Notes: generated from the sequence alone by a model not told the origin. Numbered from the stretch's first letter, positions 2,557 to 32,328 are shown. The stretch is DNA of 64,000 nt from an uncultured cyanobacterium (GCA_963749915.1 CAVVOP010000008.1:288001-352000); one strand, 5' to 3'. Made by a program: numbers and translations.

Positions 2557-3509
2557 GGTTGTGCATCAAATAACTGTGGGATAGCTGATTAAGTCATTCC
2601 AACTCCATCTCTCTTCAGTCAATCCCGCCCTCTGCGCTGCTGTCGTTCCTAACCGACTATTTTCCCAAATCCAATTGAAATAGCTGACCACTAACCTTGC
2701 CGTTACTTTCGTTTGCTCCCAGACCTTGGCAAATTTATTTTGTTGCCGATGCCATCTTCCTGTCTGTTGCCGGAGAATTCCATTAGTCCTCTCCAGCCTT
2801 TGGTTTCCTTTTTTACTGATCTGGTGCTCTATCTCCTCTGTTAATACCCTTTGATAACCCCTTAAGCCATCAGTATTCCAGTTTTGGCATTGGGTTTTTC
2901 CTTCTGTGGTCACGAGCATCTCCTCCAGAAGTTGATCCTTTCGTTTTCCTACACGAGCTGCCAGAATCAAGCCACTATCTTGAGCTAAACTAATTCCTAT
3001 CCAGCAATCCCCGGCTATTATTTCGTCTGGTTCGCATTGGCACTGTTTTGTCTTGGTGCGCGTTCCCTTGCGTCTTACGCCGACGCGGGGTCGCACCGCT
3101 TTTCGACAAATGACCACATTTCATCAGCGCTTACTTGTTCTGTTTCCACTTGTTGAACCTCAGCATTATGTATCATTTGAGCTTTTTGGCTAGCATCCCT
3201 AATCAAAGAAACTACGGTGCCGTAAGCCCTGCCACTGATTCGACTCACTCCTCTCAGGCTACTGCCTTCAGCATGAGATTGAAGAATGGTATGAACTTCG
3301 GCCGGATTGAGATGGCGGTTATAGTAAAGAGTCTCAAAATGTTCAGGAAAAGTTTTACCACAATGAGGACATTTATAACCCTGGTGTCCTTTCTCAGTTT
3401 TGCCATGTTTGTAAGCTTTATGGTGACCGCAGAGAAGACATTTCATAGAAATAAATAGAATACTACTTTTCTATCATACTCTCATCCCACAGATTTTTGT
3501 TTCACGACC
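2557..3509 (-). mobile_element. IS1-family insertion sequence (InsA 3075..3446 + InsB 2566..3117, -1 frameshift arrangement)
   Basis: InsA-like CxxC...CxxC zinc ribbon/HTH and InsB-like DDE ORF in overlapping frames. 26-bp imperfect terminal IRs GGTTGTGCATCAAATAACTGTGGGAT / GGTCGTGAAACAAAAATCTGTGGGAT. No clear TSD. Confidence 0.88.
3052..3099. repeat. ~48-bp GC-rich hairpin element inserted at the IS1 InsA/InsB junction
   Basis: CTTGGTGCGCGTTCCCTTGCGTCTTACGCCGACGCGGGGTCGCACCGC, with nested inverted repeats GGTGCG/CGCACC and GCGTC/GACGC. Sharply more GC-rich than the surrounding IS. Confidence 0.6.
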
Positions 3510-3634
3510 TTTATTTTGCCTCAGGGCAAACGCACACAAAACTTAACAAATTAGTAAAATAGCCCCAGCACCATCTACCTTAAAATAGGGTTGAGGTTTC
3601 GATACTTTAACTCCCTTGTCATGTTGTTAAAGCT

Positions 3635-5296
3635 ATGCTTCCAGACGATCTAGAATTATCCCTCTGTTCTGATTTGAGAACTTTGCAGCTGATTACAAAA
3701 AGTCTATTTGAGTTATATTTAAACAACTGCTACCAAGGCCGAGATCAATTATTGGCCTCAAAGGCTAAAAGAAGTTTATTCTATCTGCGCAAAACTGGCT
3801 CTCAAGAGTTTAGGGATGCCCTTTGTCAACAGTGGCAATGGTTTGGCGAAAAATCATATCAAACTGAATCTCGCTTTTTATTACATTACCTGTTTGGACA
3901 AAGAGATGAGATCACTCGTTTAGTACCTTGTTCTCAAAAAATAATAGCTTATGTTAAGACAGGTAATTTTGGGAATACGAAGGTAAGAGCCAAGGAATTT
4001 TTGTTAAATTTTCAGCAGTTAGTTCCCGGATTTAAATTTAGCGGCTATACCCATCACTCGAAAATCTGGAATCATTGTCGACTAGGTTGGGGCATAACCT
4101 CTAGTGCTGAATTTGAACAACTCTATTTTCAGGAATTAAACAGATGTCCTAGTCAAATTTCCCGTCGAGTTTATCTAGTTACGGGGAAAAAATATTATGA
4201 TGCACCGTCCCAAAAACAACCCCATCAACAAGAAGAACGGCAACAACAATTAACTATCATTGAGAAACTAGGAAGGCAACGAGAGGATTATCTGAGAAAT
4301 TCAGCCCAGGAAAAAATTTTGGCTTATCTCCATGACCAACCGAATTCCCTGACCCTAATGCTGAAAAAACATGGCTCGGAACTTTGGGACTTTAGCTTGA
4401 CTTTGCCAATGGAAAAACGCGAAAGTGTTCAGAGAACATTAACTTGGCTACTGGAAAATCCAGATATCCCGGTTCACTATGGAGCGGGAGAAAATACCTT
4501 AAGGCTAACTCCTCTAGGTATTTCCGTGGTTCAATTACCTCGCCAAATGCGCAAACATCTGATGCAAGGAAATTTGGAAGGAGATCTATCGGCTTGTCAG
4601 TTAGCATTGATGGCGGTAATTTGGGATATCCCCCCATTGAAATGGCGATTAGAATCAGAGGAAAATATTTGGCATTATTTAACCGAAGAAATCGGCCTAA
4701 AAAAATCACTGTTAAAGTTATTAATCTACGGTTTTAGTTATGGTGCCGCTTATTACTTAAAACGGACACCTTATCATGACGGAGATGGACTCTTAGGCAT
4801 CGTCGAAAGTTGGTTAGCAGAGCATCAACTTCCCATCGTAACGGAAGAAGTGACCAGGATTCTAAAAACTTTCCGCAGTTCTCCTGTGATCAAAGAACTA
4901 GTCAAAGCTAGGCGCAAGCATATGGTCCAATTGAAACAGAATCAAGGTTTTATTGACCCTTACGGGACTCATTGGCCGATGACCATCAATAGTAACGGCA
5001 AATCCAACGCTTATAAGTTATTAAGTATTGAAATGCAAGCCTGGGAATTTTGGTTGATGGAATCGGTCTATGATGTTTTAATTAGGTGGTCACAAGAAAG
5101 GCCGTCACAGGTAATCACCATTATTCATCAACATGATGGCTTAACTCTAAAATTAGCACAAAAAAGAATCAAACAGGATTTAATTAGAGAGATTGAAGCA
5201 TCATTAACCAATCGGACCATGGCTTGTACTCAATTAGGACTCAAAAGCCCAATCCCTGCTAAATTTGAAGTGGAATGGTTAAAGCCACAAATATAA
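3635..5296 (+). CDS. Divergent family-A (PolA-fold) polymerase-like protein, no recognisable exonuclease domain
   Basis: Motifs occur in PolA order: TLRLT..VVQLP..MR (cf. TGRLS..LQNIP..IR), motif A DLSACQLALMA (D317), motif B KSLLKLLIYGFSYG, GFIDPYG, EMQA, motif C HQHDGL (D501). Confidence 0.62.
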   Translation: MLPDDLELSLCSDLRTLQLITKSLFELYLNNCYQGRDQLLASKAKRSLFYLRKTGSQEFRDALCQQWQWFGEKSYQTESRFLLHYLFGQRDEITRLVPCSQKIIAYVKTGNFGNTKVRAKEFLLNFQQLVPGFKFSGYTHHSKIWNHCRLGWGITSSAEFEQLYFQELNRCPSQISRRVYLVTGKKYYDAPSQKQPHQQEERQQQLTIIEKLGRQREDYLRNSAQEKILAYLHDQPNSLTLMLKKHGSELWDFSLTLPMEKRESVQRTLTWLLENPDIPVHYGAGENTLRLTPLGISVVQLPRQMRKHLMQGNLEGDLSACQLALMAVIWDIPPLKWRLESEENIWHYLTEEIGLKKSLLKLLIYGFSYGAAYYLKRTPYHDGDGLLGIVESWLAEHQLPIVTEEVTRILKTFRSSPVIKELVKARRKHMVQLKQNQGFIDPYGTHWPMTINSNGKSNAYKLLSIEMQAWEFWLMESVYDVLIRWSQERPSQVITIIHQHDGLTLKLAQKRIKQDLIREIEASLTNRTMACTQLGLKSPIPAKFEVEWLKPQI

Positions 5297-5300
5297 TAGA

Positions 5301-5337
5301 AATTCAGAATTCAGAATTCAGAATTCAGAATGCAGAA
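5301..5337 (+). repeat. Heptamer tandem repeat (AATTCAG)n, STRR-like
   Basis: aattcagaattcagaattcagaattcagaatgcagaa between the polymerase-like ORF and recD2. Confidence 0.85.
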
Positions 5338-5366
5338 AAAAATTGATGATGGTCTAAGAGAAATAA

Positions 5367-7673
5367 ATGTCCCAGAACAACTCCAATTATCAACGCTCGG
5401 AAACCCTTACCGGAGTAGTGGAAAGAATCACCTTTTCAGCTCAAGATACAGGTTATACCATCGCCCGGTTACAAGTAGTGGGGGAAAAAGAATTACTCAC
5501 CATCGTTGGCAACTTTGCCAATCTACAACCAGGGCAAACTCTCAAACTTTACGGCTACTGGAAAAATCACCCTAAATATGGTTTACAGTTTTCGGTCTTA
5601 AATTACGAAGAAACCAAACCTGCTAATATTACAGGGATAGAAAAATACCTGGGTAGTGGCTTAATTAAAGGAGTAGGTCCAGTTACCGCTAAACGCATCG
5701 TTAAACATTTTGGCTTAGCAACCCTGAATATTATTGAAGAAAATAGCGAACGGCTGATTGAAGTCGAAGGTATCGGCAAAAAAAGAGTCACCATGATTAA
5801 GCGGGCCTGGGCCACCCAAAAGGTGATTAAAGAAGTGATGATTTTCCTCCAAGGCCATGGAGTTTCCACCACCTACGCCGTTAAAATTTATAAACAATAT
5901 GGACCACAAGGGATCTCCATCGTCACCGATAATCCTTACCAACTAGCTGATGATATTTATGGCATTGGTTTCTTAACCGCTGACAAAATTGCGGTAAATG
6001 TGGGGATATCACCTTGGTCAAAATTCCGTTATCGGGCCGGTATCTTATATGCCTTGGCGGAGGCGGGAGATCAGGGGCATTGTTTTCTTCCCTTCCCCGA
6101 ATTGGTCGAAGCTGCCCGAAAAATCCTCACCAATGACCAGCATCAAGCGGAAACTCAGGCCATCGAAGCAGTCATCACCCAGATGCAAAAGGAAGCAGAT
6201 TTAGTCCTCGATCATCAGGATACATCAATACCGTTATGTTATAAACCGGCTTTTTATTACAGTGAAGAACATTTAGCCAAGTTACTCCACCAGAAAATCA
6301 GCTCTCCCGCCCCGATTCCCCAACAATGGTTAGCTAACTGGTTAAATCAATTTACCGCCCAACATCAGATTCAGTTATCACCGCAACAATACCAAGCCGT
6401 ATTGATGGCCGGGAGTAATCGGGTCATGATCTTAACCGGTGGCCCAGGATGCGGTAAAACTTTTGCGACCCGTACCATCGTGGCCTTATGGCAGGCCCTG
6501 GGGTTAAAGATCGCCTTAGCTGCACCCACTGGGAGGGCAGCGAAACGGTTAGCGGAAATGACTGGGGTGGAGGCGAAAACCATTCATCGTCTTTTAGAAT
6601 TCAATCGTACTACTTTAGAGTTTAATCGCAATCAAGATGATCCCCTTCCCTATCAAGCCATCTGCATTGATGAGGCTTCGATGTTGGATTTATTCTTAGC
6701 CTATTCCTTGGTGAAAGCCATCCCCCCGGATTGTTATCTCTTACTGGTGGGGGATGTAGAGCAATTACCCAGTGTGGGCCCCGGAAATGTGCTCCAAGAT
6801 TTAATCGATTGCCAACAAATCCCGGTGGTGCGTTTAACCCAAATATTTCGACAGGCGGCAGCCAGTGGGATTATTCGCTCGGCCCATGCCATCAATCAAG
6901 GGCAATATCCCCCCTTGGAAAAGATCTCAGCTCAACCCCAAAGCGATTGTTTATGGCACAATGGCGGGACTGAACCAGAACATGGTTTACAATTAATCTC
7001 GGAGTTGATTACTGATTTTCTACCCCATCTGGGTGTTGACGTGCAGACTGATTTACAGGTGTTATCGCCGATGACGAGGGGATTAGTGGGGACGAGAAAT
7101 CTTAATCAAGTAATACAAGGTATTATTAATCCCCCGCAAAACGGCAAGGTTGAGTGGAAAAGGGGCGGTGGTATTTTGCGCGAAGGGGACCGGGTTATTC
7201 AACAGAAAAACGATTATGATAAGGAGGTGTTTAATGGTGATTTAGGGGTAATTAGGCGGATCAATACCGTGGAACAAGAGGTGCTGATTGAGTTTGATGG
7301 TCGGAAAATTGTCTATGATTATGGGGATTTGAATGAGATTAGTTTGGCTTATGCGGTGACAATTCATAAGTCTCAAGGTTCGGAATATCCTGTGGTGATT
7401 TTACCTTTATATATGCAGCATTATTTAATGCTATCGCGGAATTTGTTTTATACAGGATTAACTAGGGCGAAAAAACTAGCTATTATTATTGGCCAGGAAA
7501 AACCCATTAGTGTTGCGGTCAAACAGGTAAAAGATCGCTTGAGATATACTAAATTGAAAGAAAGATTGGTTAGTTTTGTCAAACAAGAGAAATATTCTCC
7601 TTTTTCTTCTGTTAATAAAATTGGCCAAAAAGTTGCTGAGAATAAGGCAAATTGGGACGAGAATATTAAATAA
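5367..7673 (+). CDS. recD2: ATP-dependent RecD-like DNA helicase (RecD2, SF1B)
   Basis: N-terminal OB-like region and HhH (YLGSGLIKGVGP, VEGIG), Walker A GGPGCGKT, APTGRAA, Walker B IDEASM, GD..QLPSVGPG, FRQ, TIHKSQGSE and YTGLTRAK motifs. Confidence 0.95.
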   Translation: MSQNNSNYQRSETLTGVVERITFSAQDTGYTIARLQVVGEKELLTIVGNFANLQPGQTLKLYGYWKNHPKYGLQFSVLNYEETKPANITGIEKYLGSGLIKGVGPVTAKRIVKHFGLATLNIIEENSERLIEVEGIGKKRVTMIKRAWATQKVIKEVMIFLQGHGVSTTYAVKIYKQYGPQGISIVTDNPYQLADDIYGIGFLTADKIAVNVGISPWSKFRYRAGILYALAEAGDQGHCFLPFPELVEAARKILTNDQHQAETQAIEAVITQMQKEADLVLDHQDTSIPLCYKPAFYYSEEHLAKLLHQKISSPAPIPQQWLANWLNQFTAQHQIQLSPQQYQAVLMAGSNRVMILTGGPGCGKTFATRTIVALWQALGLKIALAAPTGRAAKRLAEMTGVEAKTIHRLLEFNRTTLEFNRNQDDPLPYQAICIDEASMLDLFLAYSLVKAIPPDCYLLLVGDVEQLPSVGPGNVLQDLIDCQQIPVVRLTQIFRQAAASGIIRSAHAINQGQYPPLEKISAQPQSDCLWHNGGTEPEHGLQLISELITDFLPHLGVDVQTDLQVLSPMTRGLVGTRNLNQVIQGIINPPQNGKVEWKRGGGILREGDRVIQQKNDYDKEVFNGDLGVIRRINTVEQEVLIEFDGRKIVYDYGDLNEISLAYAVTIHKSQGSEYPVVILPLYMQHYLMLSRNLFYTGLTRAKKLAIIIGQEKPISVAVKQVKDRLRYTKLKERLVSFVKQEKYSPFSSVNKIGQKVAENKANWDENIK

Positions 7674-7860
7674 CAGCCCTTAAATATTATATCCTCCTTT
7701 TTTGAAATCTCTGAACATTTCTTCTATTCCCATTCTCTTAGAATAAGCTGATATTGATGAGGATAGGGAAGAGGGGGAAGAAAAATCTAATACTTCCCAC
7801 ACTCCCCACACTCCTCATCTCATAAAGTTTGACCGCCTAACCGAGCAGTATTGTGTATCA

Positions 7861-7902
7861 CCTCCACCAGAATGCTATTGTAAAAAACCTACCCCTGTGA
7901 GG
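7861..7902 (+). mobile_element. Isolated IS4-like terminal fragment
   Basis: caccagaatgctattgtaaaaaacctacccctgtgagg matches the reverse complement of the end of the IS4-like remnant at 40037-40075. Confidence 0.55.
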
Positions 7903-8108
7903 GTGTCCAGTGCCAGAGCAGTGGGCGGATTGAACCAGCTAAAGAGCATTAGGACAGCGACCCACAGGCTCGGCATTAACCAGCGCAAAATCGGGTAGAT
8001 CATCTTAGACATCCGCTTTAAACTTGCCATTCGTTTGATAGAAGGTGTGCTGTCCTTTTGTAGGGCAGCTTTTTGATCTTGGTCGGCTCGACTTTGAGCT
8101 TAGGTGGC

Positions 8109-8219
8109 TACTGGTCTGCCAATTTTGAAATGAGGGATAAAACAATCCTCCAAAATCCAAAATCCAAAATCCAAAATTATCCGTTCCCAGTCCCTCAAAA
8201 CTATCTTGACAGACCACTA
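8109..8219. mobile_element. MITE family A, copy 1 (inverted orientation)
   Basis: TIRs TACTGGTCTGCCAA / TTGACAGACCACTA with internal (CCAAAAT)x4. Near-identical to the copies at 29256 and 39832. Confidence 0.85.
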
Positions 8220-8364
8220 CATTGAGACCGGACAATCCGCTTGATCTGCATTGTCAGCGAAACAGACTATTCCCTGCTCCCAATCACCAAGAACCAGATT
8301 GAAGTAACGACCACCATCATAAATGTTAGCATCGTGTAGGGTCAGATCTAGCGAAGCTGTCACC

Positions 8365-8593
8365 AGGGGCAATCTAGCTCAAAAATATTGATATGTAAGG
8401 GTTGCAGATCTATTTTGCGATCGCTCTTTATCTAAAATATTGCAGGTTGTGACTACTTCCTACAATATTAGGAATTTATCAAAAAGTCAATTAGCTGAAA
8501 ATGATATAGGACATAGATTATAGCGATTATCAACTAGAATCTATTTTTACCGTCTCAAACACTGAAAACCGCAAAATTTTCTACATTGCCCCT
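8365..8593. mobile_element. Putative MITE / non-coding IS derivative
   Basis: 13-bp imperfect terminal IRs AGGGGCAATCTAG ... CTACATTGCCCCT around non-coding AT-rich DNA. Confidence 0.5.
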
Positions 8594-8663
8594 CATGTCA
8601 CTCTCGCCAGTTTTACCCCTTGTTGCAAGAAGATCGCAGATTATTAACTATAATTTGAAAATT

Positions 8664-11013: not shown

Positions 11014-12267
11014 GTGAATGAGACAAAAAATCTCGATTGGTTTCTCTTTACCTTAGTTATTGGCATCAGTAGCTTTGGTAGTTTAATTATTTATAGCACC
11101 CAGATTTACAAAAACGGGACTGATTGGCAAAGTCAATTAATTATGGTTGTAATTGGTTCATTTATATTAATTAGTTTATCTCAATATCGCTATGAATTGT
11201 TATTAAAATACCATTGGATCACTTATGCTATTACTAATACTCTACTACTAGCGGTGATTTTTGTGGGGAAAACCATTAATGGTGCTCAAAGTTGGATTAA
11301 TATAGCAGGTTTTCAGTTTCAGCCTTCAGAATTTGCCAAAGTTGGCTTAATTATCTCTCTTTCAGCTTTATTACATTATCGAGATGCCTCAAAACTACTT
11401 CATTTTCTCCCCGTTATGGCTACGGTTGGATTACCTTGGGTGTTGATTATGATTCAACCGGATTTAGGGACGGGATTAGTCTTTGGGGCAATTACTTTAA
11501 CGATGTTATATTGGGCAAATGCAAATCTGGGTTGGATTTTATTAATTTTATCCCCCCTTGTGTCTGCTTTTTTGTTCAATATTTTTTTACCGAGTTGGCT
11601 TATTTTCATCCCTGCCATGATTTTAATTGCATGGTTTACCTTACCCCCCAGATTTAAACATATTTGGGCTTTAGCCACTCTCACGGTCAATTACACCGCA
11701 GGAAAATTAGGAGATGTTCTCTGGCATTTATTACAACCCTATCAAAAAGATCGTTTAACTTTATTTCTTCAACCTGAAAAAGATCCCCTCGGCGGAGGTT
11801 ATCATTTAATACAGTCCAGAATTGCCATCGGTTCGGGTAAAATTTTCGGTAATGGTTTTCTTGACGCTACCCAAACTCATCTTAATTTTGTTCCTGAGCA
11901 ACATACTGACTTCATCTATAGTGCGATCGCCGATCAATTTGGCTTTATTGGTGCTATGGCGGTGATAATAATTTATTGGTTAATTTGTTGGCGTTTGGTG
12001 ATGATTGCCATGGAATCGAGAGATAATTTTGGGTCATTATTAGCTGTGGGGGTTTTAGGGATGATTGCCTTTCAAACCATTATTAATATAGGTATGACTA
12101 TGGGATTAGCACCCATTACGGGAATACCTTTACCCTTCCTCAGTTACGGTAGATCATCGTTATTGACAAATTTTATTGCCTTTGGCTTAGTGGAAGCAGT
12201 GGCAAACGCAAGAATTATGAAGTTACCTAAATCAAGACAAAAATATAGCAGCACAAAAAGAAGTTAA
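11014..12267 (+). CDS. rodA: Rod shape-determining protein RodA (SEDS family)
   Basis: GAQSWI, QPSEFAK, QPDLGT, GYHLIQSRIAIGSG, PEQHTDFI and GIPLPFLSYG motifs. Confidence 0.93.
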   Translation: MNETKNLDWFLFTLVIGISSFGSLIIYSTQIYKNGTDWQSQLIMVVIGSFILISLSQYRYELLLKYHWITYAITNTLLLAVIFVGKTINGAQSWINIAGFQFQPSEFAKVGLIISLSALLHYRDASKLLHFLPVMATVGLPWVLIMIQPDLGTGLVFGAITLTMLYWANANLGWILLILSPLVSAFLFNIFLPSWLIFIPAMILIAWFTLPPRFKHIWALATLTVNYTAGKLGDVLWHLLQPYQKDRLTLFLQPEKDPLGGGYHLIQSRIAIGSGKIFGNGFLDATQTHLNFVPEQHTDFIYSAIADQFGFIGAMAVIIIYWLICWRLVMIAMESRDNFGSLLAVGVLGMIAFQTIINIGMTMGLAPITGIPLPFLSYGRSSLLTNFIAFGLVEAVANARIMKLPKSRQKYSSTKRS

Positions 12268-12300
12268 GACAGATCAACGATTAAATTAAGATTTCAACTT

Positions 12301-13068
12301 TCAATCAATATTAACCCGTTGGGTAATCATTCTCATGCCGTCAGTGCCTATTAAAATGATTGAGTACCAATGATCTTCTTTTGTTAGAGGTAATTTAACA
12401 CGCTTAAAAATGCCCCCAGCCGATAAAGCTTCTAATTCTAGACTAGAAGGTTTGAGATATAGCGACGAATCGATTTTTTCCTCTAAAACTCCTCCCAAAA
12501 TAATATCTGAACCGATGGGATCTTGTAAAATAACATCAAAATCAAATTCTTCACCTGGACGGGCTTTTTCTGGTAAATTAATAGTTACCGCCGGCGGCTT
12601 TTCTCCCGTTATAACTTCATTCTTTTCCGCTAAAATTTTTTGTTTTATTAATTGGTTATTAACAAAATATTGTTCCGCTTTTATATCTGAACTGAGGGTA
12701 AATTTTTTTCCATTAATCTCATAATTACCTTGAATATTTGTGATAGTTTTAGCAACTAATTCGTCTTGATTTTGAGTCCATGATTCGATTGTCGTGGTGT
12801 ATTTTAAATCTTTATATTTTGACCATAATTTTTCTAAAGATGAGACAAAAGTTTCATAATTTAAGCCATCTTCAGTGGTAAATTTAGGGGAGATATTTTG
12901 CTCTATTAACTTTAAATCATGGTTATTAGCGGCTAAGTCTATCTTTGTTACCACCTCTAAAAGTTCTTTGGGAATATTATTAGATTGTGCGGAAACTTGA
13001 TTAAATTTAGTAAAGGTAAAGGTAAAACTTAAGATGAGTAAGAGAAAAAATTTAAGGCTTTTTTTCAT
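12301..13068 (-). CDS. Secreted conserved protein, NTF2-like N-terminal domain
   Basis: Signal peptide (MKK..VSAQ) and the C-terminal AGGIFKR motif of a conserved cyanobacterial family. Confidence 0.6.
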   Translation of the reverse strand: MKKSLKFFLLLILSFTFTFTKFNQVSAQSNNIPKELLEVVTKIDLAANNHDLKLIEQNISPKFTTEDGLNYETFVSSLEKLWSKYKDLKYTTTIESWTQNQDELVAKTITNIQGNYEINGKKFTLSSDIKAEQYFVNNQLIKQKILAEKNEVITGEKPPAVTINLPEKARPGEEFDFDVILQDPIGSDIILGGVLEEKIDSSLYLKPSSLELEALSAGGIFKRVKLPLTKEDHWYSIILIGTDGMRMITQRVNID

Positions 13069-13145
13069 GGTTTGATTATAGAAGACCATAGTTTAATATT
13101 TATATATTGTAAATAAAAATAAGTCGGCAAAATAAGAATTATAAA

Positions 13146-14513
13146 TTATTTCACAAAGCTATCCTCAAGAAGTAATTTTTCAGCATCATCACCCACACGG
13201 ATAGTAATATCAGAATCAATATCCCCCGTGGAAGAAGATTCTAATTCGCCAAAATTGATGGTGCGTTGAATGACTTGGGCTGAGTTATAATCTCCTTGTT
13301 GAACAATAATTTTCGTTATGGGGGTGGGATAAGGGGAATTGTGGGAGATATAAACATTGTTAAAACCATTTTCTGCTAAAAATGAGGCTAATTTTTCGGC
13401 TAATTTAGGATTAGGGGTAGCATTTTGAATCCCAATTTTAACACGATCAAAAGACTGATTATTTTTCGATGATGACGATTCGTTGCTAAGATATTGTTGC
13501 ATAATTTGTTGTGTATTTTTCGGAGAAGTTAGCCAATAACTGAGGGGATATTCTCTGGCACGACTTGCCTTTCCAGGTAACATTACCATGCGAATGTCCT
13601 GTCTATCTAAACTTAAACTATAGATGGCAAGGCTTAATATTTCTGATTGGGTTAAATCTGTATCAATTTCTTGTTTTAACAATTTAAGTGCTTGAGGTAT
13701 TTTGAAGATTGCTTGGGGAGATTGTGATTTTTCCCGTAACGCTGTAAGTAATATTTGTTGTCTTTGAACTCTGCCAATATCTCCTAAATTATCATTACGA
13801 TAACGGGCAAATTGTTCCGCTTGATCACCATTTAAGGTTTGTTTTCCTTCTTTTAAATCAATGTGCAACCCTTGCGTATCGTCATTATACTTCATGTCCA
13901 TCGGTACGTAAACCTCGACACCGCCGATTAAATCCACTAAATCTTTAAAGGCGTTAGTAGTAATTCTAATATGTTTATCAATAGTTACACCTTTTAAATT
14001 TCTTTGGATAACTTCTTTGGTGAAAGGTGTTCCACCTGTAGCATTAGCACTATTAATTTTATCGTAACTTCCGTTGGGCAATTGGACACGGGTGTCTCTG
14101 GGAATGGATAGTATTCTTAGGGAGTGATCATCAGGTTGAAACCGCACTAACAACATCGTGTCGCTACGTCCTGAAAATTGGTTGTCAGGATTTTTCTCAC
14201 TATATGGTACTCTATCAATACCCATCACTAAAATGTTAACAGGCTCTTGTAATTGCTGACTAAAAATCGAGGTAAAACCAAATTGTTTAAAGGCTTCTAT
14301 TTTTTCTAAGATAGGGCTAATATCCTTAGAAATTGGGCTTTTTAAGGCGACAGTCATGCCGATAAAACTAGAGACTGCGGCGGTAACGGTAAAACAACCA
14401 CCCCAAATAAACCCTTGTGGCAAAGGGGAAGATAATTTTTTGAGGAGGGTGGATTTTTTGTGGCCGTTAGACTTGCATGATTGACGTGCCGATTTATTCT
14501 TCAATTTCACCAT
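13146..14513 (-). CDS. LCP (LytR-CpsA-Psr) family protein with LytR_C domain
   Basis: NILVMGID, GRSDTMLL, SIPRDT, KINSA, RYR..GDIGRVQRQQ; C-terminal IQNAT...SDITIRVG. Confidence 0.92.
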   Translation of the reverse strand: MVKLKNKSARQSCKSNGHKKSTLLKKLSSPLPQGFIWGGCFTVTAAVSSFIGMTVALKSPISKDISPILEKIEAFKQFGFTSIFSQQLQEPVNILVMGIDRVPYSEKNPDNQFSGRSDTMLLVRFQPDDHSLRILSIPRDTRVQLPNGSYDKINSANATGGTPFTKEVIQRNLKGVTIDKHIRITTNAFKDLVDLIGGVEVYVPMDMKYNDDTQGLHIDLKEGKQTLNGDQAEQFARYRNDNLGDIGRVQRQQILLTALREKSQSPQAIFKIPQALKLLKQEIDTDLTQSEILSLAIYSLSLDRQDIRMVMLPGKASRAREYPLSYWLTSPKNTQQIMQQYLSNESSSSKNNQSFDRVKIGIQNATPNPKLAEKLASFLAENGFNNVYISHNSPYPTPITKIIVQQGDYNSAQVIQRTINFGELESSSTGDIDSDITIRVGDDAEKLLLEDSFVK

Positions 14514-14599
14514 TAATTTTTGCAGTTTTTATCTCTAATATTGATAGCATAATCTTTAATCAATTGCGTACTATTATCTCTTTATTTTGGTAAAAAAAT

Positions 14600-15661
14600 A
14601 TGAAAAAAACATTTGTACCAGTTATTTTAGCTGGAGGAAAAGGTGAAAGATTTTGGCCTTTGAGTCGATCACAACGTCCTAAACAATTTCTTTGTCTCGA
14701 TAGTAGTGGGAAAAGTTTGTTGGCAAATACTGCTGATCGTTTATTATCTTTAGCACAAGGGTGGGAAAATATTATCGTGATCACCTCCGAGTTATTAGCC
14801 GAAGGTGTCAAGGAACAGTTACCTCTATTACCCGATGATAATATTTTACTCGAACCCATGGGAAAAGATACGGCCCCGGCGGTGACATGGGCCAGTCTAT
14901 ATATTAAAAGTCATTATGGAGAAAGTGCGATCGCAGGTTTTTTCCCCGCTGATCATTATATTGGTAATCAAGAAGAATTTGAAAGAATCATTAAAACTGG
15001 TGTTAACTTTGCCATGGAAAACGAAGCCATTGTAACCTTAGGCATAAAACCTGATTATCCCAGCACCGGTTATGGTTATATTGAACAAGGAAAAATTAAA
15101 ACAGAAAAAGAGAATACCCCTATATATAAAGTAATCCGTTTCACCGAAAAACCTAATGAAGAAACTGCAAAAGAATTTATCGCGACGGATAGATATAGTT
15201 GGAATAGTGGAATGTTCATTTTTCAGGTTGGGGTTGTTTTAAGGGAATTAAGCAATTATGCACCGCAAATTTTACGACCATTACAAGAGAAGGGAAAATC
15301 AGCCTATCAACAGTTAGAAAGAATTAGTATTGACTATGCTTTAATGGAAAAAACTGCACTTACTTATATTATTCCCGCAGATTTTGCTTGGGATGACTTA
15401 GGAGATTGGAATGCTTTAGAAAGATTATTAACCCCTGAAAATAATAATGTGGTAGTGGGTAATCATATCAGTCAAGACACGAAAAACTCCATTATTTATA
15501 GTAGTCAAGAAAACGAGATAATTGTGACTATTGGTTTAGATGATGTGGTAATTATTAGAGATGGAAATGCAACATTAGTTGTCAATAAAAATCAAACTCA
15601 AGACATTAAAAAAGCCCTAAAAATTTTACAAGAAAGAAAAGATAGTCAAAATTTTCTCTAA
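14600..15661 (+). CDS. manC: Mannose-1-phosphate guanylyltransferase
   Basis: VILAGGKGERFWPLSR..PKQF, EP.GKDTAPA, PADH, TGYGYI, FTEKP, WNSGMF and W.DLG.W motifs. Confidence 0.92.
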   Translation: MKKTFVPVILAGGKGERFWPLSRSQRPKQFLCLDSSGKSLLANTADRLLSLAQGWENIIVITSELLAEGVKEQLPLLPDDNILLEPMGKDTAPAVTWASLYIKSHYGESAIAGFFPADHYIGNQEEFERIIKTGVNFAMENEAIVTLGIKPDYPSTGYGYIEQGKIKTEKENTPIYKVIRFTEKPNEETAKEFIATDRYSWNSGMFIFQVGVVLRELSNYAPQILRPLQEKGKSAYQQLERISIDYALMEKTALTYIIPADFAWDDLGDWNALERLLTPENNNVVVGNHISQDTKNSIIYSSQENEIIVTIGLDDVVIIRDGNATLVVNKNQTQDIKKALKILQERKDSQNFL

Positions 15662-15773
15662 TAATTTAATCCATAATTAAAATAATGATGTATAGTAAAA
15701 AACTATCAATTGTCATTATCAATTACCGACAATTTAGTATTCGGTACCAACTACCAACTGTAAACTATTAAAC

Positions 15774-17585
15774 ATGGATTTTTTAAGCAACATCTCTCCT
15801 ATTTTCATTACCATTACAGTTTTAATTGTCACCTTAATCGCATTTATCGCTGAATGGTTGCCGGTAGATTTAACTTCTTTATCGGTAGCTGTGGTATTAA
15901 TGCTTTTAGGGTTAGTTTCCCCAGATGAGGGAATTTCAGGCTTTGGTAACTCAGCCACTATCACCGTTATGGCAATGTTTATTCTCAGCGGGGGTGTGAC
16001 TAAAAGTGGTGTTTTAAATATTGTCAGAGATTGGTTGATTAAATTCGGAGGAAAAAATCCGAGTCAACAAATTTTCGTAATGGGAACTATTGTCGGGTCC
16101 ATTAGTGCGTTTATTAATAATACTGCAGTGGTAGCGATTTTTTTGCCCATAGTTGAGCAGTGGAGTAAACAAACTAAAGTTTCTGTTTCTAAGTTGTTAA
16201 TCCCCCTTTCCTATTCCACAGTTTTAGGGGGTATGATTACGGTTTTAGGTACATCTACTAACATTCTAGCTAGCGGTGTAGCAGTAAAATTAGGATATGA
16301 AGAATTTAATATTTTTCAATTTACCGCCTTAGGATTACCTACTTTTATCATTGGTTTAGTATATCTTTCTTTGGCCGCCCCGAAAATGTTGGCTGCTAGA
16401 AAACCGCCAGGAGGAGAATCTTTAAGTGAAGATTATGAGTTAAAAGAATATGTTAGTGAGATGATTATTCCTCCTAAATCCAGCTTAATTGGGCAAACTT
16501 TGCGCAGTAGTGAAATTCAAAGAAAATTTGATTTAGATATTTTAGAAATTATCCGTAATGATGAACATTTTCCGCCGCCTTTGGCTGATAAGGTTTTAGC
16601 TGTAGGGGATATTTTATTAGTTAGAGGTAGTCGAAATAATTTACTAAATATAAAAGATGAAAGAGGCGTTGAAATTCTGGCAGATTTTAAGTTTAACTCT
16701 GATAATTTGGAGAAGGAAAATAATGAAGAAGAAGAGAAAATCGCTGAGGTTTTAATCTTATCAAATTCTCGTTTAATTGGTTCAACTTTAAAAGATTTGC
16801 GTTTTCGTCAACGTTATAATAGTACAGTTTTAGCTATCAGAAGAGGACAAGAATTAATTAGGGAAAGATTAGGTAAAACCACTTTAAAATTTGGCGATTT
16901 ATTATTAATTCAAGCACCAAAAGAGAGTTTCATTGGTTTACAAACCACGAGAGAATTATTAGTTTTAGAAGAAAAAAATCGAGAGGGTTTAAGACAAGAA
17001 AAAGCCTTAATTGCTTTAGCTATTATTGTTGGTGTTGTTTTAATATCCGCCATGGATATTGTGCCGATTTTAACCGCCAGTTTAGCGGGAGTTTTATTAA
17101 TGGTGATTACAGGATGTTTAAAACCAGGGGAAATTTATGGGACAGTTAGATGGGATATTATTTTCTTATTGGCAGGGTTAATTCCTCTTGGTTTAGCAAT
17201 GGATAATTCTGGCACTAATCAATGGTTGGCCGATAATTTGTTAGGGGTAGCTGGTAACTTATCAGGATATTGGATTCTCGTGTTATTCTACTTTGCGACC
17301 TCGATGTTAACAGAGGTTTTATCTAACAATGCCGCAGTGGTTTTAATGATTCCTATCGCGGTGAAAATAGCTGAAAGTATGGGTTTAGAGCCTTTATCGT
17401 TCATGTATGTAGTAACGTTTGCAGCTTCTAATAGTTATTTAGCTCCCATCGGCTATCAAACTAATACAATGGTATATGCCCCTGGAGGTTATAAATTCCT
17501 AGATTATACTCGTGTTGGCCTTCCTCTCACCATTACGTTAACTCTAGTAACTCCTCTTTTAATCATGAAAATCTATGGCATTTAA
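15774..17585 (+). CDS. SLC13/DASS family permease with TrkA-C domains
   Basis: SAFINNT, GTSTN, two TrkA-C repeats, SNNA and PIGYQTN motifs; many TM segments. Confidence 0.88.
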   Translation: MDFLSNISPIFITITVLIVTLIAFIAEWLPVDLTSLSVAVVLMLLGLVSPDEGISGFGNSATITVMAMFILSGGVTKSGVLNIVRDWLIKFGGKNPSQQIFVMGTIVGSISAFINNTAVVAIFLPIVEQWSKQTKVSVSKLLIPLSYSTVLGGMITVLGTSTNILASGVAVKLGYEEFNIFQFTALGLPTFIIGLVYLSLAAPKMLAARKPPGGESLSEDYELKEYVSEMIIPPKSSLIGQTLRSSEIQRKFDLDILEIIRNDEHFPPPLADKVLAVGDILLVRGSRNNLLNIKDERGVEILADFKFNSDNLEKENNEEEEKIAEVLILSNSRLIGSTLKDLRFRQRYNSTVLAIRRGQELIRERLGKTTLKFGDLLLIQAPKESFIGLQTTRELLVLEEKNREGLRQEKALIALAIIVGVVLISAMDIVPILTASLAGVLLMVITGCLKPGEIYGTVRWDIIFLLAGLIPLGLAMDNSGTNQWLADNLLGVAGNLSGYWILVLFYFATSMLTEVLSNNAAVVLMIPIAVKIAESMGLEPLSFMYVVTFAASNSYLAPIGYQTNTMVYAPGGYKFLDYTRVGLPLTITLTLVTPLLIMKIYGI

Positions 17586-18909: not shown

Positions 18910-18982
<73 letters not shown>

Positions 18983-26974: not shown

Positions 26975-27098
26975 ATAAAGAAGGTTTCTAGGGTTCCGAT
27001 GTAAATACATGACTGGTCCGAGAGAAACGAGCTACTTACAATATTTTTTTTAGATAAGGATAAAGATAGCTACACGGAGGGAGAAAAGCCCGGGAGGA
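26975..27098 (+). promoter_or_regulatory. Guanidine-I (ykkC-yxkD) riboswitch
   Basis: Conserved blocks TTTCTAGGGTTCCG...GACTGGTCCGAGAGAAA and ACACGGAGGGAGAAAAGCCCGGGAGG, upstream of a guanidine hydrolase gene. Confidence 0.93.
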
Positions 27099-27169: not shown

Positions 27170-27964
27170 ATGAGTAATCAACCAGAAAGCGAAGCTCAAA
27201 AAGCCCTGCAAAAGGAAAATCGACTATCCTTTACGGGGTGGCAACAGGAAGTACAAGACGGTTTAAACTATGGACTAGAAGCCGCTGACAGTATTAAAGA
27301 TCGGACTATTTCTACTTTCTCTCGTGGAGAATTACCCCATTATGCAGGTATCAACACTTTTCTAAAAGCACCCTATTTAGAGGATGTCAAAAAAGTGGGA
27401 GAATATGATGTGGCCATCGTCGGTGTTCCCCATGATTCTGGCACCACATACCGTCCTGGTACTCGTTTTGGGCCCCAAGGCATTCGTAAAATCAGTGCTT
27501 TATATACCCCCTATAACTTTGAGTTGGGGGTAGATTTAAGGGAACAAATCAAACTCTGTGATGTGGGTGATATATTTACCATCCCGGCAAATAATGAAAA
27601 ATCTTTTGACCAAATTTCCAAAGGCATTGCCCATATTTTCAAATCTGGGGCATTCCCCATCGTTTTAGGAGGAGATCATTCCATCGGCTTTCCTACTGTA
27701 AGAGGGGTTTGTCGTCATTTAGGAGATAAGAAAATCGGGATCATTCATTTCGATCGCCATGTAGATACCCAAGAAACAGATTTAGACGAGAGAATGCATA
27801 CTTGTCCTTGGTTTCACGCCACCAATATGAAAAACGCCCCTGCCAAAAATCTTGTGCAGTTAGGCATTGGCGGTTGGCAAGTGCCTCGTCAGGGAGTCAA
27901 GGTCTGCCGTGAAAGGGCGACGAATATTCTCACCGTTACCGATATTACGGAAATGGGCTTAGAT
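27170..27964 (+). pseudogene. gdmH: Guanidine hydrolase (agmatinase/ureohydrolase family), truncated by IS1634
   Basis: GVPHD..TYRPGTRFGP, GGDHS, HFDRHVD and ERMHTCPWFHA motifs. Native sequence stops at TEMGLD (265 aa), where the IS end CCCACATTCCGCA begins. Confidence 0.85.
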
Positions 27965-29175
27965 CCCACATTCCGCACGTCACTTTGTAAGATGATAAAA
28001 GTATTAAAACCAAGCAACTTATTTTGGACAAAATATAAGTAATAATACTCAATATCTTCTTTATTTATGGTATTATAATTGAGAATGTTTAGACTCTTAA
28101 ATCCCATAAGTTATCCAGATAAAATATAATAATTATGACAAGAAATCGGGAAAAAACTTAAAATTAGTTTTCGTTCATTTGTTAGATTTACTATCTGTTT
28201 TATTCCTTGATTTATTACTAAATGAATCCCCTGAAAACATTGAAATATCAATCTTAACGTTGGACGTTCCGTTAGTTTTCCTAGCTGATTTTTTATCCCC
28301 GTTTTTCTCTCCTCTAATAAGCGACGCACTTCTCTTTGCCCCAAAGAATATACTAACAGACATAACCCCAAAAACACATTGATATTGTTTCGATTCTTTT
28401 TGGGGTTTTTAAAAACACACTATCGGCAAAAAATAATGGCTCTTTCAGAAAACTAAAACCTCTTTCTGCGGCTTGTTGCTCTTTATACTTAATTAAAATC
28501 TCATCGGAACTAAATTTACTTTTATCTAATCTATTTGTCGCTAACACAAATCTTCCTACTCTTTTTTTGATTCGTTTATTTTAGTTAAATCTGATTTCAA
28601 AATAGCCGTAACTTGATAAGTTTTTCCCGATTTTTCTTCCTTCTTTTTCGATTTTTTCTTGTGATTATTTAACTCACTTTCTGTAATTTTTATATCTGTT
28701 ATGTGATGATATTTTAAAGTCTTATTCAGTCTCAAAATCTATCATTGATTTGTATTCTTTCGCTATTTTGCCGAAAACTGCTTTATCATTTTCATTGCCA
28801 TCTGCTACTCTTAAAAATAAAGGAATATCACCATCACTACTCACAATTAAATCCAAAATAAATTGTTTTAAATCTGGTCTATGGTCACGGGAATAACCTT
28901 TAATTATCTTAATTGGAATTTGATTAATTAACTCTAATTCTGCATTTTCTTTCACCAAGTTTTTGGTGATTTTTTCTTGACTATATTTCCCCTCTACTGC
29001 AAAAGATGTTGAATCCAAATGGGAAAAATTGATGTTGATGTCATATTTTTTTACTGTGGCTAAAGCAATGATTAAAAATAATGGAGATAATCCTTTCTCA
29101 TAAAGTTGATCCATTATTCTTCCAATTCTGTCATCATTCAAATGCGCTGGAAGTATTCCTTTCCCAATTAAATGA
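27965..29175 (-). mobile_element. IS1634-family remnant (right end, frameshifted C-terminus, internal fragment)
   Basis: End CCCACATTCCGCACGTCA; near-identical to the reverse complement of 20520-21234. Fragments 28111..28547 and 28722..29175 (HLDSTSF, GYSRDHRPDLKQF). Left end absent. Confidence 0.88.
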
Positions 29176-31836: not shown

Positions 31837-32060
31837 ATTTTTCAACGGTAATTTTAATTAAAGATCTTTATCTCTAAAATACAGCGATTAGTCACCGCGG
31901 AATTTAACATTTTGTAACGAGTAATCCTGAAAAAGACCCTGGTATTGTTGACTATCCCCTATTCCTCATTCCCCCAGTTCTGCAAAGAAATAGATCACAA
32001 CCTCGAGGCCAAAAAAAAATAGTTGCTTAAAAAACAGTAACTTATTATCATGGTTAGTGA

Positions 32061-32238
32061 AAAGCTACCACGTTGGTGACTGCCAATCAAGTTTTTTGAT
32101 CTATACTTGAGTTATAAGGAAACTAACAGAGTTCTTGTAGTAGTAAACCGAGCATTTGTACTCGGAAACAGAAACAGAAACGTTGGTGTCCACCTGGTCA
32201 TCCAGGTCATAAACTGAGGTAAAACGGCGTGGTGGTTT
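32061..32238 (+). ncRNA. ssrS: 6S RNA (SsaA/6Sa)
   Basis: ~180 nt with terminal stem AAAGCTACCACGTTG / CGGCGTGGTGGTTT, and the 3' block CACCTGGTCATCCAGGT...GAGGTAAAACGGCGTGGTGG characteristic of cyanobacterial 6S RNA. Confidence 0.85.
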
Positions 32239-32328
32239 AACTCAATGCACAACTGACGACAATTTACAATTAATTTTGACGATAAATGTGCAAGTTAAAT
32301 GTCATAATTATCTGTTGTTCATTGCATA

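Follow-up and report, generated by a model that had tools for sequence, protein, structure and literature searches.

The window that was analysed, a stretch of 64,000 nucleotides from an uncultured cyanobacterium, holds a small polymerase gene followed by a recD2 helicase gene, with IS elements on the left and multi-copy repeats on the right. The features are:

2557..3509, minus strand: IS1-family element (insA 3075-3446, insB 2566-3117)
3522..3559, plus strand: truncated left terminus of another resident IS, 75 bp ahead of the polymerase start codon
3635..5296, plus strand: intact gene for a minimal family-A polymerase-like, TV-Pol-like protein of 553 aa
3788..4129, plus strand: N-terminal domain, ~aa 52-165, winged-helix-like in the whole-protein model
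4220..4459, plus strand: thumb helices, aa 196-275 (model helices 196-217, 223-233, 239-254 and 259-274)
4502..4504, plus strand: R290 in the beta-hairpin ahead of motif A, conserved in 126/126
4583..4600, plus strand: motif A, with catalytic D317 and with Q322 at the site of the ribose-excluding Glu of Pol I
4703..4744, plus strand: motif B (O helix), with K357, K361, Y365, Y369 and G370
5126..5143, plus strand: motif C, with catalytic D501 (125/126) and G502 (124/126)
5301..5330, plus strand: short run of tandem heptamers between the two genes
5367..7673, plus strand: intact recD2 of the type of cyanobacterial plasmids, an SF1B helicase of 768 aa
7686..8219, no strand: mosaic of multi-copy repeats resident in the genome (7686-7756, 7759-7900, 8108-8219)

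Translation confirmed both open reading frames of the initial annotation and the gap of 70 bp between them, in which no further ORF is found; upstream of the polymerase there is only an IS end. The six family-A motifs that had been read from the polymerase were recovered in the order claimed, with D317 and D501 in place. These motifs exceed chance, as a profile of 126 family sequences matched Klentaq over palm and fingers (E 3.4e-7). The structure model of the 553-aa ORF (pLDDT 87.6, pTM 0.85) matched 6vdd (Z 18.5, rmsd 3.6 Å, 303 residues), reached Z 17-18.5 over ~300 residues with Pol I and T7 DNA polymerases, and gave E 8.6e-9 in Foldseek. The proposed family-A fold, with thumb, palm and fingers, was thus retrieved by structure and profile searches alike. 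Conservation was read from 126 aligned relatives; in the underlying alignment (A2) 27 of the 149 other listed relatives had been dropped by length (fragments or proteins of ~600 aa or more), and P0001 was left out as near-identical to the query. Within this set both aspartates proved conserved (D317 in 126, D501 in 125). Position 322, whose register at the ribose-gate site is set by the Klentaq alignment, is Gln in 115, His in 10 and Glu in one, while motif B keeps K357 in 122, K361 and Y365 in all 126 and G370 in 125. Among three close relatives, the region from motif A to B is 90-94% identical and the thumb 72-78%. The reported absence of exonuclease domains also held, as none appeared in the model or in Pfam scans, and the part ahead of the thumb is only ~190 aa long. 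Longer proteins with a fused domain were sought in the range of 1023-2920 aa, and none turned up, a result of little weight. The ORF is a genuine but much reduced relative of DNA polymerase I and, given its modelled fold and conserved catalytic residues, very probably encodes an active enzyme.

The N-terminus of 280 aa that the initial annotation had set apart was too long, as it includes the thumb. The PolA structural match begins around residue 206-217, and the extra domain is therefore limited to ~aa 48-190. It is modelled as helices with short strands, at a pLDDT of mostly 82-97 with one block at 65. Its matches are to the winged-helix proteins VbrR, CssR, ScpA, PurR and RepE (Z 4.4-5.9; for RepE, 2z9o, Z 4.9 and rmsd 4.1 over 94 aa), all of them weak and below Z 8, the range that the structure-search tool calls common. 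No usable Atlas match and no convincing PDB sequence match were obtained for this domain. These weak matches suggest a winged-helix-like domain, and for this putative domain the chances of binding an origin appear about even.

The polymerase had been called an orphan, which it is not: 688 representatives matched at E<=0.001, and, clustered at 50% identity, the family numbers 688 clusters or more, across many phyla. The ORF itself had no match in Pfam, PHROGs or PADLOC, and in NCBIfam a single weak one far below the cut-off. The Pfam model DNA_pol_A detects 9 of 96 family members at E<=0.01, the present ORF not among them, and PHROGs none of the 96. Its own clade is set apart, with 78-87% identity within (the three closest relatives, P0002-P0004) and at most ~31% outside. 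Loci of this close clade were sought in genome, metagenome and viral contigs, and none were found. When the G164 protein and P0129 were each used as a single query, viral contigs gave nothing and no phage record came up, and with P0129 genomes gave nothing either. Three weak genome matches (E 7e-5 to 4e-4, 120-165 profile positions), two of them in frames of ~1000 aa, were set aside as ordinary Pol I. The polymerase is present in one of seven genomes of the genus, which bears out the horizontal origin that had been proposed. The family was also considered as a common plasmid initiator (Rep); it occurs in only one of 72,556 plasmid records, a Deinococcus megaplasmid, and is therefore no such initiator.

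Among described systems, the protein resembles the TV-Pol family predicted in 2008 by Iyer, Abhiman and Aravind (PMC2579912), whose bacterial members are mostly uncharacterised by experiment. The features given there, which recur here, are a length of 400-600 aa; a minimal core that consists of a two-helix thumb, a hairpin with an invariant Arg (R290, 126/126), a palm with two Asp and the fingers; the absence of a nuclease domain and the presence of an extra N-terminal domain; and neighbours such as a lambda-type integrase, resolvase, KilA-C and restriction operons. The family as a whole shows the integrase, resolvase or IS transposase neighbourhood of the TV-Pol subset with N-terminal domains, whereas this copy has IS neighbours but no recombinase within ~40 kb. 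The family appears to depart from the published description in several respects. The TV-Pol fingers motif RxxxK is here basic-xxx-K, as KxxxK (K in 122, R in 3 and Q in 1 of 126); the N-terminal domain, predicted there to be all-helical, has strands here and, from weak matches, a winged-helix-like look; and the D5 helicase link of another TV-Pol subset was not seen in this family, with no D5-type helicase gene among 134 scanned neighbours of homologues. Against the family of MAP_030, a protein of Microcystis phage Ma-LMM01, the family profile gave an hhalign match of 94% (E 1.3e-7) that spans every motif. The kinship is a distant one, with hmmsearch giving E 0.53 inside the phage genome, and no alignment was obtained between the two N-termini. 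MAP_030 is presumably the Ma-LMM01 member named in PMC2579912.

Primer-independent synthesis has been shown experimentally for CCPol-MP-Cch2 of SCCmec and PolA-SSB primases (PMC7581432; bioRxiv 10.1101/2022.12.02.518924), and according to PMC7581432 CCPol was, as of 2020, the only TV-Pol with biochemical work behind it. Like the present protein, CCPol is an A-family core carried by a mobile element, and it may serve as a model for the mode of action. According to the same sources, CCPol is a near relative of Pol I in which E710 and F762 are retained, where this family has Gln or His and Tyr, and it needs a separate OB-fold protein and shares an operon with a helicase, whereas neither partner is conserved among the annotated neighbours here. 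Pol I and T7 DNA polymerase have the same thumb-palm-fingers fold, but at 12-15% identity. Pol I furthermore has exonuclease domains and discriminates ribose through E710 and F762, in contrast to this ORF, with Q322, Y365 and neither 3'-5' nor 5'-3' exonuclease. With T7-like enzymes the ORF shares a Tyr at motif B position B3 (PMC10201439). The gate raises the question of a small, T7-like single-subunit RNA polymerase that would transcribe element genes from a promoter read by the winged-helix domain. Gln or His occupies the ribose gate in 125 of 126 sequences, and the RNA polymerases of T7, mitochondria and N4 are weak fold matches (Z 5.6-8.5). The fold is nevertheless much nearer to DNA polymerases (Z 17.9 for Klenow against 8.5 for T7 RNAP), the profile matches Pol I, Pol theta and T7 DNA polymerase with no RNA polymerase among the 34 listed, and the T7, mitochondrial and N4 virion chains matched are of 832-1095 aa against 553 aa here, so that we consider an RNA polymerase very unlikely.

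A functional theme emerged from the neighbourhoods of homologues, where integrases, resolvases, HTH and antirepressor genes are the usual neighbours. Of 24 genome, plasmid or viral loci, 18 had a tyrosine integrase or serine recombinase; the share was 15 of 21 where both flanks reach at least 3 kb and 9 of 15 once profile-building loci were removed, as against only 16 of 53 metagenome loci, which are mostly short. All of these are raw counts, uncorrected for the rate at random loci. The recombinases were Pfam-confirmed at 11 loci, and a KilAC antirepressor adjoins the homologue in three. At locus L077 a UvrD-type gene lies 1.4 kb upstream on the opposite strand. ORFs with a Walker A motif lay no more than 3 kb away in just 3 of the 77 loci, and among annotated neighbours no conserved small partner gene, helicase or fixed effector was seen. 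Replication or priming of a mobile element, one of the functions first put forward, is the likeliest function given the relatives beside integrases or resolvases (the 15 of 21 well-flanked loci), and we hold a role in element replication to be likely. The anti-phage role that had also been suggested, in which the polymerase, alone or with RecD2, would yield a nucleic-acid product or signal upon infection, draws on restriction-modification genes in 3 of 23 scanned loci (L067, L069, L078), a Pycsar-like pair in one of the 23 (L068) and the DUF499 gene beside the recD2 of genome G410; beyond the few restriction-modification and Pycsar neighbours nothing positive came to light for it. PADLOC 2.0 matched no family for the polymerase and six relatives, its matches to RecD2 were helicase-domain matches, no fixed effector partner was found and the usual neighbours are of the kinds given above; moreover, PMC2579912 attributes the restriction operons near TV-Pol elements to hot spots of integration. 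An anti-phage enzyme therefore seems most improbable.

The surroundings in this genome are dominated by resident repeats. The IS1 that had been noted on the left stands, on the evidence of 26-nt terminal inverted repeats (2557-2582 and 3484-3509), a Pfam transposase match (PF03400, E 1e-6) and a 98% copy on the same contig (C8:889213-890166). It is a resident multi-copy IS outside the module, and reading its flanks by eye revealed no target duplication. The IS end at 3522..3559, which we take to be ISAs1-like from the look of the transposase, has 10 exact 21-nt copies in the genome, only one of them within the window. One copy carries a 380-aa open frame with the partner end 1452 nt away, and three have a partner end ~207 nt away. 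A composite transposon was considered and rejected, as no partner for the 3522 end lies in the window or within 2.5 kb and IS1 lacks a target duplication. On the right, where IS ends and MITEs had been claimed for 7.8-8.6 kb, 7686-7900 and 8108-8219 are multi-copy repeats (7, 11-20 and 29-37 other genome matches for 7686-7756, 7759-7900 and 8108-8219), and 8250-8600 is nearly single-copy. No recombinase was found on C8:250-340 kb, that is, within ~40 kb of the polymerase, and no origin-like repeats were seen beside the pair. Base composition of the module is not diagnostic: in GC3, among 1635 long ORFs, the polymerase ranks at the 78th percentile and recD2 at the 93rd, and the absence of HIP1 sites from the 4.3 kb has a probability of 0.23. 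Scans for promoters and terminators did no better than chance, with no terminator-like site between the two genes. In run X1, of which 37% was read, depth over the module was 8-30 outside repeats and 9.2-11.2 kb was nearly uncovered, figures that carry no weight here.

RecD2 matches TIGR01448 over its whole length (864.5 bits against a cut-off of 500, profile positions 1-713), and its best 30 plasmid matches are all cyanobacterial and 61-64% identical, on plasmids of Nostoc, Synechocystis and Acaryochloris. Unlike those copies, this one is chromosomal (on a contig of 940 kb) and lies behind a polymerase. The initial annotation had proposed that the two genes form a coupled system, and the co-occurrence check, named there as a refuting test, speaks against it. 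No recD2 was found at 77 homologue loci, a scan in which 110 aa of recD2 would be detected at E 4e-35. These loci represent 68 clusters at 90%, 68 of them have at least 400 bp downstream, and they come mostly from one subgroup (by the patterns of alignment A3), ~20-30% identical and none of the own clade; L066 had been dropped, as the profile found no member there. Conversely, the polymerase family was found in none of 33 genomes, 28 of which hold recD2 or pieces of it, by a search that recovered the family in G000, G098, G139 and G164, and it was near none of 29 other cyanobacterial recD2 loci in genomes and none of six on plasmids, where the upstream genes differ in all six.

There is also the reading that this cyanobacterial lineage recruited a plasmid RecD2 as the 5'-3' helicase of a clade-specific working pair, like CCPol-Cch2 or TV-Pol-D5. 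Both genes are intact on one strand with a short gap in which no terminator-like site was seen, and a contig of run X1 from a near-identical strain (5063-6335, 9 differences) retains the adjacency, with 21 gap letters over the spacer that are probably three fewer repeat units. The polymerase clade is distinct, and helicase and polymerase partners are said in PMC2579912 to replace each other in mobile elements. The null counts above speak against such a pair, as do the missing recombinase and origin-like repeats and the nearest recD2 genes: the copy in G410 (78-80% identical, adjoining the DUF499 gene) has no polymerase gene within 700 bp upstream, recD2 genes at 78-82% identity stand without a polymerase both in G410 and on contig C21 of the genome under study, there as a fragment, and DNA likeness to G410 begins 11 bp ahead of the recD2 start codon. 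The literature searched, with most subscription journals outside it, held no PolA-like and RecD pair with primer-independent synthesis, and work on RecD2 in cyanobacterial plasmid replication held none of this kind. A working pair is accordingly regarded as unlikely. The recD2 that adjoins the polymerase is common plasmid cargo with no fixed neighbour, and since it is no regular companion of this polymerase family the two genes are most likely a remnant of mobile DNA and no new two-gene system.

Based on the above, we favour, with moderate confidence, a minimal family-A polymerase, predicted to be active, of a widespread TV-Pol-like family on small integrative elements and temperate phages, stranded beside recD2. 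It is probably the primase-polymerase of an integrative element or phage, now between IS scars and next to a plasmid-type recD2. The element would first excise, after which the N-terminal domain would bind its origin or template; the PolA core would then make a primer, possibly with ribonucleotides in view of the Gln or His at the ribose gate, and extend it, and host enzymes would complete replication. De novo priming is a plausible but tentative part of this scheme, a little short of even. Here the gene would have lost its element, given IS scars on both sides and no recombinase within ~40 kb; polymerase and recD2 most likely joined on mobile DNA and were then stranded in the chromosome. A bolder version appears rather improbable to us. 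In it a single chain would act as initiator, primase and polymerase, with a Rep-like winged-helix domain that finds the origin and an opened-gate PolA core that lays RNA or mixed primers with no primase, SSB partner or helicase of its own, an intermediate that links DNA polymerase I with the RNA polymerases of T7 type, and this clade would also have recruited RecD2 into a two-gene SF1B replisome.

The pair itself is probably of little weight, and it is the family that matters, with its at least 688 clusters, of which Pfam missed 87 and PHROGs all 96 of the 96 members scanned. A natural PolA with a Gln/His gate and a fused putative DNA-binding domain offers a direct test of the 2008 priming prediction and bears on how DNA- and RNA-making members diverged within the superfamily, and the family might be a source of a compact polymerase that needs no primer, or of a new replicon. 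It is a large and unnamed family, whose members mobile elements probably use to start their own DNA copying.

The two genes that the initial annotation had paired are both intact in the window, where the polymerase ORF of 553 amino acids (3635-5296, + strand) is followed after a gap of 70 bp by recD2 (5367-7673, + strand), which scored 864.5 bits against TIGR01448 (cut-off 500). The window lies within a 940-kb contig (C8) of a genome (G000) totalling 4.69 Mb, and we infer from the gene content and the HIP1 octamers (3.4 per 10 kb) that it belongs to a cyanobacterial chromosome. The polymerase gene is single-copy in this genome, and its product matched no Pfam entry, and no NCBIfam entry in any meaningful way. 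The label 'orphan' did not hold, as a search run without a word index matched 688 representatives at E<=0.001, of which 178 passed E<=1e-10. Three close relatives, its own clade, are 78-87% identical; among the matches listed, those outside its own cluster show 24-38% identity and are mostly 430-600 aa long. A strong family match was present in 4 of 401 sampled genomes of the phylum, G000 counted among them, and homologue loci came from Cyanobacteria, Bacteroidetes, Verrucomicrobia-type bacteria, Armatimonadota, Patescibacteria, Chloroflexales, Gammaproteobacteria and Deinococcus. The nearest Atlas clusters are unnamed, and in the top two of them Uroviricota is the most frequent phylum.

Judged by predicted fold and motif residues, the ORF is a real family-A polymerase, on which profile and structure searches agree. 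The family profile A2 (126 sequences, made up of the query together with 3 close relatives and 122 of the other 149 listed proteins) matched Klentaq from the Arg hairpin through the last strand (E 3.4e-7), followed by Pol theta and T7 DNA polymerase. The AlphaFold model (pLDDT 87.6, pTM 0.85; pLDDT under 50 at aa 1-11 and 31-45 only) matched family-A polymerases with Z 16-18.5 over about 300 residues. Both proposed catalytic aspartates are conserved in A2 (D317 126/126, D501 125/126), as are R290, W346, K361 and Y365 (all invariant), E471 and G370 (125/126 each) and K357 (122/126), figures that are biased upward because members were picked by likeness to the query.

The alignment with Klentaq places Q322 at the motif A Glu and Y365 at the motif B Phe. 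Of the 126 A2 sequences, 115 carry Gln at the former position, 10 carry His and a single one carries Glu; at the latter, all 126 have Tyr. According to the accessible part of PMC7581432, E710 and F762 exclude ribonucleotides in E. coli Pol I and are retained by CCPol, in contrast to the 553-aa polymerase; a Tyr at the motif B position also occurs in T7-like enzymes (PMC10201439, in part). From the changed gate residues we infer, in a testable way, that the sugar gate may be relaxed in this family. That the protein would be a small RNA polymerase seems very improbable, Klenow having scored Z 17.9 in the wide structure search versus Z 8.5 for T7 RNA polymerase.

The N-terminus, initially put at 280 aa, turned out shorter: the thumb of the model starts near residue 196, so that the extra domain spans about aa 48-190. 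The domain's matches, all weak, were to RepE, a plasmid initiator (94 residues within model 52-158 at Z 4.9 and rmsd 4.1 A), to VbrR, CssR, ScpA and PurR at Z 4.4-4.7, and to two chains of proteasome type at Z 5.0-5.9. The title of the ScpA chain names a winged helix, and the matched RepE, VbrR, CssR, PurR and proteasome-type chains are presumably winged-helix domains. A winged-helix-like N-terminal domain is a lead, since the Z scores fall in the tool's 'common' range and were taken from the whole-protein model.

The proposed coupling of polymerase and RecD2 found no support at the level of the family. We compared 77 homologue loci (53 from metagenomes and 24 from a set of genomes, a single plasmid and a single viral contig; at 90% identity they form 68 clusters), which extend at least 400 bp downstream in 68 cases and at least 1500 bp in 51. 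A local RecD2 profile, which detected 110 aa of a relative's RecD2 at E 4e-35, recovered recD2 at E<1e-4 in 0/77 of these loci, none of them from the query's own clade. Below E 0.1 there was one match, at L077, to an oppositely oriented UvrD gene. That locus is the only one with helicase-type neighbours, namely this UvrD with Topo zinc ribbons (5664-8537) and a HerA/TrwB-like ATPase of 1711 aa (12071-17203), likewise opposite to the polymerase. Conversely, 29 other recD2 loci gave no match to the polymerase profile within 1.5 kb. A profile search that gave positives in the phylum sample also failed to find the family in 33 whole genomes, of which 26 carry recD2, 2 carry pieces of it and 5 are kin. 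Six plasmid recD2 loci likewise gave no match, the genes upstream of recD2 differing from one plasmid to the next. The best 30 plasmid matches of the window's RecD2 were all cyanobacterial (61-64% identity).

The distribution of recD2 is patchy (27/151 genomes of the order); within the genus its DNA occurs in 3/7 genomes and the polymerase in 1/7, G000 only. Upstream of the nearest recD2 (G410, 78-80% identity) no ORF of 100 aa was seen within the 700 bp examined. This G410 gene is divided between two contigs (L025, L026), a brief run of low complexity sits at the break, and a DUF499 gene of 1150 aa faces it. In G000 itself, recD2 fragments without an adjoining polymerase (C21:294224-294836, 82%; C2:7490-7660, 68%) point to earlier entry and decay of recD2-bearing DNA. 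One contig of sequencing run X1 crosses the junction of the two genes (5063-6335; 9 differences, 21 gap letters), though it derives from a near-identical strain. A working pair specific to the clade is conceivable, albeit rather unlikely. No publication on a pairing of a PolA-like protein with RecD2 turned up in our literature search, an absence that means little as the pair itself is unconserved.

The neighbours of the homologues connect instead to mobile DNA. As raw counts, a tyrosine integrase or serine recombinase was present in 18/24 genome-type and 16/53 mostly short metagenome loci, in 15/21 loci whose two flanks both reach 3 kb or more, and in 9/15 once profile-building loci were left out. 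Pfam confirmed integrases, resolvases, excisionase-type HTH proteins and KilAC antirepressors among 134 neighbours, and showed neither a primase nor a D5 helicase there. Restriction-modification and Pycsar genes were few in this set, and an anti-phage enzyme appears the least probable of the readings. In G164 and G098, two of the four phylum genomes with a strong match, the polymerase gene is flanked by an integrase and a KilAC antirepressor, then by a further block that by appearance comprises phage head genes; two genes scanned from it had no Pfam match. Related prophage-like elements of cyanobacteria (L005:7799-18395, L006:7045-19295) combine integrase, polymerase, KilAC antirepressor and an unannotated block. 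At three loci (L068:4077-4851, L074:1574-2788, L076:8022-9236) a cassette upstream of the polymerase combines a gene for an FtsK-gamma domain with small genes and a divergently oriented Cro-like HTH gene.

Among known kinds, Pol I and a CCPol-MP type primase were rejected as the identity of the polymerase. It would work like TV-Pol and is probably a member in the broad sense. As far as the accessible part of PMC2579912 describes TV-Pol, the two share size, a minimal core, nuclease absence and neighbours, but appear to differ in KxxxK here versus RxxxK, in the N-terminal domain with strands and in the absent D5 link. The same part places TV-Pol in phage Ma-LMM01. The Ma-LMM01 gene MAP_030 (L086:4749-6293), annotated as hypothetical, has the motifs in order and adjoins two transposase genes. 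Its family matched A2 with probability 94% (E 1.3e-7), and its gate position is His (6/6 aligned relatives). MAP_030 would be the member meant in PMC2579912, which may bear on membership.

The following features were located around the pair:

2083-2193, - strand: 36-codon ORF, found by eye, presumably petM
2557-3509: IS1, with a 98% copy elsewhere in the genome
3522-3559: terminal 38 bp of another resident IS (apparently full copy at G000:C21:762682)
18910-18982: tRNA (above Rfam gathering score)
26977-27098: guanidine-I riboswitch (above Rfam gathering score), ahead of ORF 27170-28042
32059-32242: 6S RNA (above Rfam gathering score)

The ORF at 2083-2193 is conserved across the host family (DNA identity 77-90%), marking the left flank as host DNA; this flank is followed by IS1, the 38-bp end, 75 bp and the polymerase start codon. 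For the second IS, which we take to be ISAs1-like, there are also three derivatives shortened to about 220 bp. In one contig of run X2 the letters upstream of 3510 differ from the window, which weakly hints that IS1 arrived later. Multi-copy repeats on the right extend to 8219. The genes of the two flanks lie far apart in relatives (in G407, for instance, at 3.53 Mb and at 0.30 Mb), so that an empty site is undefinable. Between 250 and 340 kb of C8, searches with local profiles turned up neither an integrase or resolvase gene nor a KilAC gene.

The most likely reading, to which we give reasonable credence, is that the polymerase gene served to start the replication of a temperate phage or an integrative element and is now stranded. 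The N-terminal domain would bind the origin or template, and the PolA core, itself evident, would prime, by analogy with CCPol, and then extend. Host enzymes would complete replication, given that helicase and primase genes are absent from the relatives' neighbourhoods, and recD2 would be a neighbour acquired on mobile DNA. The L005 and L006 elements are good candidates for an intact polymerase-bearing element, and the value of the finding lies in the polymerase family rather than in the polymerase-RecD2 pair.
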